Shown piece by piece: positions 19,792 through 58,058 of a stretch of 64,000 nt of DNA (the stretch's first letter is position 1; the number at the start of each line of letters is the position of its first letter). The DNA is from an uncultured Gemmataceae bacterium (GTDB lineage Bacteria > Planctomycetota > Planctomycetia > Gemmatales > Gemmataceae): the NCBI GenBank assembly GCA_963750165.1, contig CAVVPN010000003.1, positions 3,232,001 through 3,296,000 of the forward strand, given 5' to 3'. The translations under genes were made by a program, and so were the position numbers. The notes under the pieces are model-generated. The model worked only from the letters and a program-made list of their open reading frames with translations, was not told the DNA's origin and did no database searches.

Positions 19792-22700
19792 GCCAGCTCC
19801 TTACCCCAGGCGGCCAGCGCCGCCCGCAATCGGTCGATGTCCTGCTCCAGGCGGGCGAACGCTTCGTCCGCCCCGTCCACCCTCCCGTCCTGGCCCAGCA
19901 ACTCCAGCTGCAGCGCCGCCGCGGCCGCCGCCGGCGCCGCCAGACTGCTCAACGTCCCCCTGAGCGAGTGAGCCGCCCGCTCCAGCGGCCCCGCCTCGCG
20001 CTGCGCCAGCGCCGTGCCCACCGCCGCCACCAGCTGCGGCCCCTGCTCCAGAAACAGGGCCGTCAGCTGCCGGGCCGCCTCCCGGTCGCCGCCCACTCGC
20101 TCCAGCAGTTCCACTGCGTCGAAGGCGTCCGCTGCCGCGCGCGGGGACAGACGCCCTCCGCGCGCCCGTCCGCCGGCAGCACCGCCCAGGGCAGCAGTTC
20201 GGCGATGGTCTGCCACAGGTGCGCCGGCCGCAGCGGCTTGGTGAGATAGCCGTCCATGCCGGCGGCCAGGCAGCGCTCGCGGTCGCCCTTCATGGCGTGG
20301 GCCGTCAGTGCAAACACCGGCAGGCGTCGGCCCGTGCCCGCCTCGCGCCGCCGCAACTCCACCACCGCTTCCAGGCCGTCCATCTCGGGCATCTGCACGT
20401 CCATCAGCACCAGGTCAAAGTCCCGCCCGGCCAGCGCGTCCAGCGCCTCGCGGCCGTTGGCGGCCACGCACACCTCATGGCCCCGCTTGCGCAGCGTGAG
20501 CACGCCCACCCGCTGGTTGTAGACGTTGTCCTCGACCAGGAGGATGCGCAGCGGCCGCAGCGCCGGCGGCTTCGAGGACGCGGGCAGGTCCAGCATTTCG
20601 GCACCGGGCGCCGTGCCCGCCGCCAGCGCCTGCAACACGTCCAGCAGATCGGACTGGCACACCGGCTTGGTCACCCGCATGGCCACCGACAGCGACCAGC
20701 GCCGCTCGCCGTCACGGGGGTTGGCGGCCGGCACCATCAGGACGACCCGCGGCTCCGGGTAGACGAGGTTGTTGGCGTCGCGGGTCAGCACCTGGCTCTC
20801 CCCGGCCGGCAGGGTGGCGTCCAGCAGCAGTAGCGGAAACGGGTCGCCCGCGGTCGCCGCCTGCGCCAGCGCCTCCAGCGCCGCCGGGCACGAGGCCACG
20901 CCGGCCGGCCGCATGCCCCAGTGGGCCAGGATGGTCTTGAGAGACCGTCGGCTGGTGGTGTTGTCGTCCACCACCAGCACGCGCAGGCCCGCCAGGCTGA
21001 CCGGCTGGCCGAGGCTGGCCGCGCCGGCCGACAATCCCAGCTGGGCGGTGAAGTGGAAGGTGCTGCCGCGCCCCGGCTCGCTCTCGGCCCACAGCCGGCC
21101 GCCTAGCAACTCCGCCAGTCGCGCTGAGATTGCCAGCCCCAGCCCGGTGCCGCCGTAGCGCCGCGTGGTCGAGCCGTCCGCCTGCACGAAGGGTGCGAAG
21201 ATCAACCGCAGCTGGTCCGCCACGATGCCGATGCCCGTGTCACTCACCGAGAATTGCAAATTGCAGATTGCAGATTGCAAATTGTCATCGGTCTTTGCAA
21301 TTTGCCATCTGCAATCTGCAATTTGCAATTTTTCGACCCGCACGACGATCTCGCCGCGCTCCGTGAACCTGGTCGCGTTGCTGACCAGGTTGACGAGCAG
21401 CTGCCGCAGCCGGCCCCAGTCGCCTACCAACGTCTCCGGCACCTCCGGCCGTACATCGCAGACCAGCTCCAGCCCCTTCTTGTGCGCCGCAGGGCCAGCG
21501 GCTTGAGCATCTCGTCCAGGCCGTCACGCAACTCGAACGTCACCGGGTCCAGGTCGAGCTTGCCCGCCTCGATCTTGGAAAAGTCGAGGATGTCGTTGAT
21601 GAGCGTCAGCAGCGCCTCGGTGGAGGTCTTGATGACGGTGACCAGTTCGCGCTGCTCGGCGCTCGAGCGCCGTGTCCAGGGCCAGTTCCGCCATGCCCAG
21701 GATGGCGTTCATGGGCGTGCGAATCTCGTGGCTCATGTTGGCCAGGAACTCGCTCTTGGCGCGGTTGGCAGCCTCGGCGATTTCCTTGGCCCGCTGCAGG
21801 TCCTCCGCCGCGCGCCTGTGCGGGGAGATGTCCTGGATCTGGGCGATGAAGTGCAGGGGCTGGCCCCGGTCGTCGCGGACCAGCGACACGCTCACCAGCG
21901 CCCAGACGACGTGGCCGCCCTTGTGGAGGTAGCGCTTCTCTATCTGGTAAGTGCTGGTGTCGCCGTCCAGCATGTGGCGGAGTTGCCGCAGGTTGGCGTC
22001 GAGGTCGTCGGGGTGGGTGATGGCCTGGAAGTCGCAGGCCAGTAGTTCGGCCTCGGAGTAGCCGACCAGGTCGCACACCCTGCGGTTGACCTGCAGCCAG
22101 CGGCCGTCGATCCCCACCAGCGCCATGCCGATGGCCGCGTGGTTGAAGGCGCTGCGGAAGCGCTCCTCGCTTTCGCGCAGGCTGGCTTCCAGCGTCAGCC
22201 GCCGGCCCTCGGCCCGCTGCCGGTCCTCGGCCTCGCGGCGCAACCCCGCGTTGGACTCGGCCAGCGCCTCGGTGCGCTCGCGGACCCGCTCCTCCAGTTC
22301 CTCCCGGCGCGGCGCAGCGAGGCGACGACCTGGTGCTTCTGGGCCAGGGCGCGACGGGCCAGGTAGAAGGCGCTGGCCAGAAAGACGCCGGTCAACAACG
22401 TGGCCAGCACCAGGGTGGTCAGGGTCAGACGGGAGCTGGCCCGGGAACGGGCCGCCCGGCGGGCCAGCAGGTCGCGCTCCGCGGCGGCGAGCGCGTTCAC
22501 CCGCGCCCGCAGGCCGTTCCGCTCCTGTTCCGCCCACCGCGCCAGCGGCAGGCGCAGGGGCCGGCCCAGCAGAGCGCCCTCGGTCAACTGCTGGTGCCCC
22601 GCGATCCGCGCCAGCCATACCTCCGACCGGGCCTCCAGTTCCCGCAGCCGTTCTTGCTGGGCGGGGTTGTCGGCCGTCTGTTCCTGCAAGGACTGAATCT

Positions 22701-23013
22701 TTTCGCGGAGTCGCGCGGTCGCCCGGCCGATCTCCTCCTGGTAACGCTCCTGATGGGTGAACAGGTAGGCGCGGTGAGCGGCGCTGGCTTCCCCCAGCAG
22801 CGTGTGGGTCGCCTGCAACTGCTCCAGTATCTCGTGCGTGTGGACCACCAGATGCCCGTCCTCGACCAGGTGGAGCACGTTCGCCGACGACACCGCGCCG
22901 TTGACGATCAGTGCCGCCAACGCCAGCGCGAAGCCGGCCACCACGGCCCACAGGCGGACGCCCTGCGGGCCAGGTCGCGCGGTCGGGTCGGAAACCTCAG
23001 TCGGTGACCTCAC
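19788..23013 (-). CDS. Hybrid sensor kinase CHASE3-PAS-HisKA-HATPase-REC-REC-HPt; frameshifts near 22310, 21660, 21490 and 20155
   Basis: TM-CHASE3-[38 protein letters not shown], two REC domains, AAHSLRG HPt motif spread over successive frames. Confidence 0.85.
21252..21330. repeat. Inverted heptamer tandem repeat (TTGCAGA)n, intragenic
   Basis: 33-bp arms with 1 mismatch, 13-nt loop. Confidence 0.95.
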
Positions 23014-55835: not shown

Positions 55836-55922
55836 TCATTAGTCATTAGTCATTAGTACGGGGCACCCGCTTCGGACCAATGACCAATGACCAATGACTA
55901 ATGACTGATGACTAATGACTGA
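55832..55922. repeat. Inverted heptamer tandem repeat (TAGTCAT)n/(CTAATGA)n overlapping a stop and a start codon
   Basis: Left arm 55832-55857, right arm 55876-55922. Confidence 0.93.
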
Positions 55923-58058
55923 CAAGATCAACATCCTGGTGGTGGACGACCTGCCGGAAAAGCTGCTGGTGCTACAGTCCGTCCTGGAGGAACTGGGGCA
56001 GAACGTCATCACCGCACGCTCGGGCGAGGAAGCGCTGCGCAAGGTCCTGGAACACAAGTTCGCCGTCATCCTGCTCGACGTGAACATGCCGGGCATGGAC
56101 GGCCTGGAAACCGCCGCCCTCATCCGCGGCCGCAAGAAGTCGGCGCACACGCCCATCATCTTCGTCACCGCCTTCGCCGATGAAATGCACACCGCCCAGG
56201 GCTACGAGTTGGGCGCCGTCGATTACATCCTGTCGCCGATCGTGCCGGAAGTGTTGCGCACCAAGGTCCGCGTCTTCGTCGAGCTGTTCCGCATGACGCA
56301 GCAGGCCCACCGCCAGGCCGACGAGCGCGTCGCCCTGGCGCGGCGCAGGCGGCCCGCGCCGCCGCCGAGGAGGCCACGCGCCGCTCCGCCTTCCTGGCCG
56401 AGGCCAGCACCGTCCTGGCCAACTCGCTCGACTTCGACGCCACCGTGCGCGGCCTGCTCCAACTGGTGGTGCCGTTCCTCGGCGACCTGGCCGCGGTCAC
56501 GCTCGCCAGCGAGGCCGGACTGCCCTGGCGCAGTCAGTTCGCTTACCTGTTGCTGGACGACGGCGGCCTGCACCAGGGCGCACTTACCGCCGCCGAAGGG
56601 CCGCAGGATGAACTGCGGACCGCCGTGGAGCGCGTGCTGACCGGCGGCCGGGCCGAGACGCTGGATCGACCGCGTCGGTTGTCCGTGGTCCGTGGTCCGT
56701 CGCCAGGGGCGGGAGCGACGGACCACGGACCACGGACCAGGGACGAAATCGAATTGCACACAGCCGTCGTCCTGCCGCTGCTGGCCCGCGGCCGCACACT
56801 CGGGGCGCTGACGCTGGCCCACGGCCCTTCCGGGCGCCACTTCACACCGGCCGAGTTGTCCCTGGCCGAAGACCTCGCCGGCCGCGCTGCCATCGCCCTG
56901 GACAACGCCCGGCTGTACCGCGACATCCAGCAGGCCGACCGCCACAAGAACGAATTCCTGTCCATGCTGGCGCACGAGCTGCGCAACCCGCTGGCGCCCA
57001 TCCGCAATGCCGTGCAGATTCTTCGCCTCAAGTGCGCCCACGACCCGGAGTTGACGCAGATCCGCGACCTGATCGACCGCCAGGTGCAGCAGCTCATCCG
57101 GCTGGTGGACGACCTGCTGGACATCTCGCGCATCACCCGCGGCAAAATCCGCCTGCAAACCGAGCCGGTGGATGTGGCCACAGTGGTCACCCGCGCCGTC
57201 GAGACCAACCGGCCGCTGATCGACACCCGCCGCCACGAGTTGACGGTGACGCTGCCGGTCGAGTCGCTGCGCGTCGAGGGCGACCTGGTACGGCTGGCCC
57301 AGGTGCTCGGCAACCTGCTCAACAACGCGGCCAAGTATACCGAGGACGGCGGCCACATCTGGCTGACGGCGGAGCGCGACGGCACCGAGGCAGTGCTGCG
57401 CGTGCGCGATACCGGTGTGGGCATTCCACCGGACATGCTGGCCTCCATCTTCGAGTTGTTCACGCAGGTCGATCGGACGCTGGACCGCAGCCAGGGCGGT
57501 TTGGGCATCGGCCTGACACTGGTGCGGCGGCTGGTGGAGATGCACGGCGGCCGCGTCCAGGTCCACAGCGAGGGCCCCGGCCAGGGCGCCGAGTTCGTCG
57601 TCCGGCTGCCGGCGCTGGTGGGAGAGCGGCGGTCGGTGGCGACGGCCAACGGCATCGTCAGTTCGCTGGCGCGGTGCGGCCCGGTGCGCGTGTTGGTGGT
57701 GGACGACAACCACGATGCGGCCGACAGCCTGGCACTGCTGCTGCGGCTGGGGGGCCACGAGGTGCGCATCTGCCACGACGGCGCCACGGCGGTCGCGGTC
57801 GCGGCGGCGGATCGGCCGCGGCTGGTGCTGCTGGACATCGGCCTGCCCGGCATGGACGGCTACGCGGTGGCGCGCCAGCTGCGCCAGCTGCCCGAGCTGG
57901 CCGGCACGGTGCTGGTGGCGCTGACCGGCTACGGCCAGGCAGAGGACGTGCGCCGCTCGCACGAGGCCGGCTTCGACCACCACCTCGTCAAGCCCGCCGA
58001 CCCGGAGACGCTGGTCAACCTGTTTGCCTCGCTCGAACGCGCCGCGTCGGTTTCGTGA
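55915..58058 (+). CDS. Hybrid kinase REC-GAF-HisKA-HATPase-REC; frameshift near 56343
   Basis: ILVVDD, LLDVNMPG; KNEFLSMLAHELRNPLAPI; NLLNNAAKYT; GGLGIGL; C-terminal REC. Confidence 0.9.
56681..56737. repeat. Inverted heptamer tandem repeat (GTCCGTG)n/(CACGGAC)n, intragenic
   Basis: 23-bp perfect arms, 11-nt loop. Confidence 0.93.

Follow-up and report, generated by a model that had tools for sequence, protein, structure and literature searches.

Inverted heptamer hairpins in a Gemmataceae genome and the small gene-carrying cassettes that share their build

Five hairpins in the window

The DNA analysed here is a 64,000-nucleotide stretch (the window; C3:3232001-3296000) of the 9.62 Mb, 12-contig, 93% complete genome of an uncultured Gemmataceae bacterium, and the elements in question are hairpins in which a tandem array of a short unit faces an inverted array of the same unit across a loop. 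The original prediction had described five such hairpins with one architecture and four unit words, three of them in frame inside genes and two at gene junctions. All five are present, and a six-frame reading combined with Pfam matches places three in stop-free reading frames and two at junctions. None of the five carries a gene. The features are as follows:

21252..21331, gene on the minus strand: TTGCAGA/TTGCAAA heptamer hairpin (arms 21252-21284 and 21294-21331), lying in frame within the HATPase domain of a histidine kinase, in the beta-hairpin loop
28720-31602, minus strand: TreS-like amylase gene, which holds the TCAGGAG hairpin
30019..30120, gene on the minus strand: TCAGGAG/TCAGAAG/TCAGGGG heptamer hairpin (arms 30017-30050 and 30067-30116), a 102-nt (34-aa) in-frame net insertion in TreS
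41055-41053, minus strand: ATG of a treY-like gene, directly after one arm of the 41061 hairpin
41062..41163, no strand: GTCATTA hairpin at 41061 (one arm 41062-41098, short right arm ending at 41163), filling the junction of the glgX-like and treY-like genes
41171-41173, minus strand: stop codon (TAA) of the glgX-like gene, 7 nt before the other arm of the 41061 hairpin
55832..55920, no strand: GTCATTA hairpin (arms 55832-55857 and 55875-55920) at the junction of a HAMP kinase gene (48633-55835) and the next gene
56674..56744, in the open reading frame (ORF) 56445-58058 on the plus strand: GTCCGTG hairpin (arms 56681-56700 and 56718-56744), positioned in frame within a GAF domain, in a variable part of it

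Each hairpin folds better than all 200 of its shuffles, with z-scores of -9.9 (21252), -4.4 (30017), -5.5 (41061), -10.2 (55832) and -6.9 (56681). At 55832 the HAMP kinase gene ends with a TAG contributed by the left arm (55833-55835), and the gene that follows takes its ATG (55915) from the right arm. The kinase itself is a 2400-aa sensor protein with about 14 tandem HAMP domains and a 276-nt period.

A genome-wide class and its gene-carrying cassettes

A scan of the whole genome for tandem arrays facing an inverted array at most 200 nt away yielded 153, 42, 78 and 6 pairs at periods 7, 8, 9 and 10, respectively, compared with 0, 0 and 0 at periods 7, 8 and 9 in one codon-shuffled genome. Merging the pairs gave 268 elements, 151 of period 7, 40 of period 8 and 77 of period 9, at a density of 20-32 per Mb on the large contigs; the small contigs C2, C5, C6, C8 and C9 (233 kb together) contain none. 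The 41061 hairpin was missed as a pair by a stricter scan because its right arm is short, and both of its arms were read directly in the sequence. Of tandem arrays as such there are 285 with period 7, compared with 19 with period 5, 12 with period 10 and 17 with period 11, the excess that marks heptameric long simple-sequence repeats, such as the short tandemly repeated repetitive (STRR) heptamer arrays of cyanobacteria. The prediction of a class that is scattered through the genome and characterised by build and period more than by any single sequence is thus borne out, except that the class is not limited to period 7: heptamers are commonest, but the scan also pairs 8- and 9-mer arrays.

The prediction had also mentioned heptamer repeats beside four-helix-bundle genes. 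The window holds no such gene, yet both four-helix-bundle genes (PF05635/TIGR02436) found in the genome lie inside period-7 arms, each cassette being situated between protein ORFs:

C11:1894926-1895440: PF05635 cassette with GTCATTA arms
C3:24152-24670: PF05635 cassette with GTACGAA arms

The protein of the C11 cassette matches the solved structures 2GSC and 2RLD. Likewise, both GxxExxY genes (TIGR04256) found in the genome lie inside 8/9-mer arms, so that the elements enclosing a small ORF comprise four cassettes with two cargo families. The outer 22 nt of the four cassettes, allowing at most 2 mismatches, are repeated in 57, 0, 27 and 14 gene-less copies.

The association extends to the wider class. 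Among 121 genomes of the class, PF05635 matches occur in 71 and TIGR04256 matches in 72, and the best-scoring loci (30 four-helix-bundle, 29 GxxExxY) were inspected for arms. Strict inverted arms flank 16 of the 30 four-helix-bundle loci, fifteen with period 7 and one with period 9, and 9 of the 29 GxxExxY loci, with periods 8, 9 and 10 in 5, 3 and 1 cases, whereas none of 167 control stretches has them. A relaxed period-7 test detects 20/30 four-helix-bundle loci, 0/29 GxxExxY loci and 0/40 controls. Inverted repeats of any kind are found at 28/30 and 26/29 loci, figures that stand without a matched control. The arm period therefore sorts with the cargo family while the unit word does not, from which recognition of structure or spacing, rather than of one word, is predicted.

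On these grounds we consider it about an even chance that the hairpins are gene-less copies of small selfish cassettes, each carrying a four-helix-bundle or a GxxExxY gene, that are pasted into new sites at the DNA level. The cassettes themselves are probably mobile.

Insertion sites, placement and competing explanations

To place the elements in an evolutionary context we compared their sites with those of relatives, all of which belong to other genera, as no same-genus relative was among those searched. Empty orthologous sites were found for TreS, HisF, the HATPase loop and junction 55832. The TreS spacer measures 6 aa in 83 of 89 parsed homologues (10 of 99 were unparsed) but 40 aa here, and the net 102 nt read as a clean palindrome. 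In HisF, 10 residues in 11/11 parsed orthologues (of 15) compare with 39 here. The HATPase loop has 35 aa here and 21 aa in 9/17 parsed foreign homologues, the rest having 25-43; and junction 55832 corresponds to a 19-nt spacer in relative G013 and to an 80-nt non-repeat spacer in G001. The UvrA linker ranges from 19 to 43 residues in 8 parsed relatives, one of which has a different repeat. Among the in-frame window copies a net insertion is thus evident in TreS (+34 aa) and in the HATPase loop, whereas the region of the GAF copy (56681) is about equal in length in two orthologues, without net gain. The TreS, HisF, UvrA and HATPase copies are in-frame insertions in variable loops, as is typical of the palindromic elements of Rickettsia.

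Three different unit families occupy the HATPase loop in three of this genome's kinases, TTGCAGA being found at that position in relative G002 as well, and upstream of the gene orthologous to the one at the 55832 junction there is an array of another heptamer family in G007 and another palindrome in G008. At the TreS site of distant relatives, reads from four DNA metagenome runs include some with 9-18 other letters, which is a hint only. In UvrA the linker carries a 9-mer hairpin in this genome and an unrelated repeat resembling repetitive extragenic palindromes (REP) in G007. Two adjacent hybrid kinases (C12:815525, C12:816267, C12:830675) apparently contain two repeat inserts each, from four unit families, located in the HATPase loop and the receiver linker.

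Compared with the empty sites, about 4 residues are lost in HisF, 7 in UvrA and 8-10 in the HATPase loop. A net gain that is usually below the element length suggests that native residues were replaced rather than displaced, as far as protein alignments between genera, the only ones available given the relatives searched, can indicate.

With respect to genes, the gaps between codirectional, convergent and divergent genes contain 200, 42 and 14 elements, respectively, and ORFs contain 11, counts that depend on a home-made gene caller by which some empty gaps are overstated. Three of the 11 in-ORF calls (C3:1696999, C4:160075, C11:1111608) were dropped by eye as native peptide repeats; of the 8 kept by eye, 3 are those in the window. 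The GTCATTA unit brings stops in every frame from three units on, and 0 of 50 copies of this family are in frame; nor was a split gene found among 86 junction copies, although paralogues are informative for only 5. Placement that spares translation, as originally proposed, is supported, and the hairpins likely persist only where translation survives; this may reflect targeting or survival after selection. Intron-like or bypassed copies were considered and rejected: the five junctions with paralogue matches represent two separate ORFs or an unrelated fusion, in a test that is blind where a gene has no paralogues. Also rejected was a role of the hairpin as a bridge from ribosome-binding site to start codon, as at 41061, since 10 of 106 junctions fit it, the background of about 10%. 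Copies on the leading and lagging strand number 78 and 82, with the GC skew of the assembly too weak to assign strands.

The elements keep close to stop codons. In 169 of 201 cases the upstream stop lies at -15 to +9 nt from the arm start, and the residual gap beside elements has a median of 26 nt (n=158) compared with 92 nt elsewhere (n=2323). Where the gap contains at least 100 nt of other DNA, the upstream stop is no more than 25 nt away for 26 of 40 copies, with 7.7 expected, and divergent gaps, although they make up 1090 of all 7839 gaps, hold only 14 of 256 intergenic copies. These last two figures speak for the elements acting and spreading as RNA, with excision by RNase III as in the intervening sequences (IVS) of 23S rRNA and new copies made by way of RNA, for instance with a reverse transcriptase supplied in trans and aided by an Avd-like four-helix bundle; such a route would explain a location in transcribed DNA just behind stop codons. 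It also agrees with the 7 reverse transcriptase matches of the genome and with the IVS of Coxiella, which in the passages describing it has heptamers, a 28-bp stem, an S23p ORF and an RNase III cut (PMC4990558). The tests made at the mRNA level point the other way. Isolated mismatches on the mRNA strand show no preference for G.U (58) over A.C (66), the mRNA-strand fold is more stable in 91 copies and less stable in 117, and loop subfamilies occur in both orientations (3 vs 5, 2 vs 3), so that we rejected selection on the fold of the mRNA. Moreover, copies within genes leave the reading frame intact and no stop-rich copy is in frame, as expected for elements that are translated and not spliced. 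We therefore regard the RNA route as possible but improbable. Of the two levels of action first envisaged, DNA or mRNA, the mRNA part finds no support and the DNA level stays preferred, while the avoidance of divergent gaps and the proximity to stops point to RNA or to selection. The one reverse transcriptase locus inspected, L099:1240-3027, is a 595-aa ORF that resembles a group II intron protein.

Traces of copying bear on a different alternative, in which slippage expands a native 7-9-mer, fold-back by template switching makes the inverted arm, and a cargo gene is merely often caught in between. The variant bases of the units are mirrored between the arms in 128 of 254 cells (mean 89, maximum 102 in 100 permutations of units), which counts in favour of such a local origin and of the cassette reading alike; the outer units resemble, by eye, native codons (L-Q-F for L-H-F in the HATPase domain, V-R in HisF, the ATG at 55915), target duplications are not in excess, and heptamer slippage was put forward by Mrazek 2007, according to the summary in PMC4679880. 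Against this, arm polarity does not vary: the 5' arm has the same strand-form in every copy of the 30 largest unit families (50/50, 17/17, 16/16 and so on). Families are few, and their non-repeat outer ends are conserved, for instance TTAGC before CACAGAG. An inner AAGAC word is shared by 99 of 268 copies across all three periods, and the 212 loops include dispersed, near-identical clusters of 15, 11, 5 and 4 at distant loci, some of the links being caused by nested palindromes. As the arm period furthermore sorts with the cargo gene, we judge a local origin unlikely. Of the prediction that the elements are mobile or self-expanding, purely local expansion is disfavoured by the fixed polarity, shared loops and outer ends, and mobility is probable.

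Elements also occur inside the loops of other elements. In two hairpins (C3:1036646, C11:1879580) a further palindromic element about 100 nt long is embedded, flanked each time by TTAG at either end, as would be left by a target duplication, and other REP-like palindromes are likewise nested in hairpin loops.

Terminal inverted repeats, dispersed copies and empty orthologous sites are all features of MITEs (miniature transposable elements with inverted repeats), and the hairpins might be ordinary MITE or REPIN elements that owe their movement to a DDE or Y1/RAYT transposase acting in trans, with the cargo genes as passengers. Their size and in-frame fusion also resemble bacterial MITEs and Rickettsia palindromic elements (RPEs) as portrayed in passages of PMC2229807, and the genome has 4 Y1_Tnp matches. 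None of these four Y1 genes lies inside any array pair listed, however, which differs from the repeat-flanked Y1/RAYT gene that is the mark of REP/REPIN systems, and the end sequences fall into dozens of unrelated kinds. Target-site duplications, although displayed by the nested element, are not in excess: direct repeats of k=4-8 in the flanks do not exceed shuffled flank pairs (k=5: 14 vs 16.4), in a test insensitive to palindromic or 2-3-nt duplications and applied to fuzzy element ends. The long-range arm pairs inspected enclose four-helix-bundle genes, GxxExxY genes or non-coding palindromes, DDE families not having been searched. We judge a conventional transposon origin less likely still. 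Most doubtful of all is that the elements are domesticated host signals (terminators, mRNA stabilisers or nucleoid-protein binding sites) kept by selection, since their position behind stops, the enrichment of TAA as the native stop directly before them (78/162 vs 929/4625 elsewhere), the slightly higher codon scores of their upstream genes and the regulatory roles proposed in passages on Geobacter and Beggiatoa arrays (PMC2700814, PMC4679880) are opposed by orthologous sites that are empty or hold other repeats, by copies inside coding loops, by the absence of strand bias and by one strict pattern that, searched class-wide, matched only the window's own genome (1/121), a pattern too strict for cargo co-occurrence.

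The preferred reading, gene-less copies of selfish cassettes pasted at the DNA level, could operate as follows. A donor hairpin would be copied into a nick or break at a new DNA site without target duplication, with a few native bases trimmed and often with a short likeness between unit and site. One arm would be copied from, or corrected by, the other (homogenisation), and slippage would afterwards alter the number of units. The cargo proteins may recognise the period or fold of the arms and not one word: the GxxExxY protein, which we take to have a nuclease fold, would serve 8-10-mer arms, and the pentameric four-helix bundle, presumably a nucleic-acid binder in the manner of Avd, would serve 7-mer arms. 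The fold labels of both proteins are in part our assumption, and their roles we infer from position and period alone. Selection would then remove gene-breaking copies, leaving survivors behind stop codons, at junctions to which they supply TAG or ATG, or in loops.

A number of observations weigh against this reading. Movement, excision and protein binding of the elements are inferred rather than observed. The GTACGAA cassette is the one with 0 gene-less copies, and conversely the scans of this 93%-complete genome gave no gene-carrying cassette for three of the window's four families, TTGCAGA, TCAGGAG and GTCCGTG. Strict arms are lacking at about half of the four-helix-bundle loci and at two thirds of the GxxExxY loci, and there is no correlation between unit word and protein distance (Mantel rho 0.06, p 0.21, n=28 loci). 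Random insertion would not predict so tight an association with stop codons and short spacers, nor does a break-repair model account for it, and the apparent replacement of native residues could be later loop erosion. A more far-reaching version, in which transposase-free mobile elements are read by arm period rather than sequence and both cargos paste hairpins into breaks beside stops, replacing a few native bases, is put forward as tentative. If true, it would provide a function for two large orphan protein families and explain both the heptamer-repeat excess and the origin of ORF-bearing rRNA intervening sequences.

Elsewhere in the window, positions 1-6823 encode a large Ig-like repeat protein (294-nt period, about 17 copies) with DUF4214 domains at its end. 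Abrupt frame changes in ordinary genes near 10300, 18150, 21490, 21660, 22300, 39350 and 56340 are more suggestive of indels introduced by long-read assembly than of biology.

Relation to known repeat systems

The excess of 7-base repeats in bacterial genomes has long been noted without a cause being given, and the papers found assign no function to the proteins of the TIGR02436 and GxxExxY families. The present genome brings both cargo families into one testable package of set-period arms, small gene, hundreds of gene-less copies and empty sites, and adds tests of polarity, arm mirroring, strand bias, duplication and period versus cargo. The elements rewrite gene ends by supplying stop and start codons and, judged by open frames only, would give TreS, HisF, UvrA and sensor kinases additional peptide loops derived from the repeats.

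The separate pieces are already in print, as paired arrays in Geobacter and Xanthomonas and as the IVS of Coxiella; we found no paper connecting dispersed arrays to both gene families, subscription papers and the Geobacter supplements aside. In Geobacter metallireducens, hepta- and octamer arrays are paired on opposite strands across a variable spacer (PMC2700814), and Xanthomonas has 70-75 inverted GGGAATC pairs (PMC4692102). Like the elements described here, these are opposite-strand pairs of tandem 7-8-mers, intergenic and sometimes intragenic, and the Geobacter class-3 consensus MTYCTGA resembles our TCAGGAG/TCAGAAG family (PMC2700814). They are interpreted there as regulator sites or G-quadruplexes, and the passages concerned contain no cargo-gene link and no empty-site or polarity analysis.

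STRR and Beggiatoa repeats share with the present elements the placement of heptamer arrays at gene boundaries, in many cases with the array ending directly ahead of a start codon: STRR heptamers are mentioned for Calothrix (PMC4692102), and TAACTGA arrays precede start codons in Beggiatoa, where 1 set of 170 is inverted (PMC4679880). Those arrays are described mostly as direct, whereas most of the strong arrays here form hairpin pairs. Rickettsia palindromic elements, hairpins about 100 nt long that sit as in-frame fusions within conserved proteins (PMC2229807), agree with the present elements, as do intragenic MITEs, in their in-frame fusion and in the confinement of stop-rich forms to intergenic DNA. 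As described in that source, each such element has one sequence family, while here many words share one build with periodic arms and no detectable target duplication.

The closest counterpart is the ORF-bearing IVS of 23S rRNA. In the passages on Coxiella burnetii it combines tandem heptamers, a 28-bp terminal stem, a PF05635-type S23p ORF and RNase III cleavage, and is horizontally acquired with a patchy distribution (PMC4990558); PF05635 genes have also been noted wedged into cas operons in a passage of PMC3936711. Our two PF05635 cassettes, both outside the window, likewise have a PF05635/TIGR02436 gene in heptamer-bearing terminal inverted repeats, and the likeness includes patchiness and the replacement of a small native loop. 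They differ in location, as the window elements lie in or between protein genes, with no Rfam match in the window and none in a 23S rRNA helix, in being accompanied by some 270 gene-less forms at operon junctions and in protein loops, and in the second cargo, GxxExxY, that goes with periods 8-10. Since they are not in rRNA, show no duplication and have no flanked RAYT gene, they fall outside the IVS, DDE MITE and REPIN classes, respectively: in their working they resemble non-autonomous palindromic mobile elements, and in their build an IVS.

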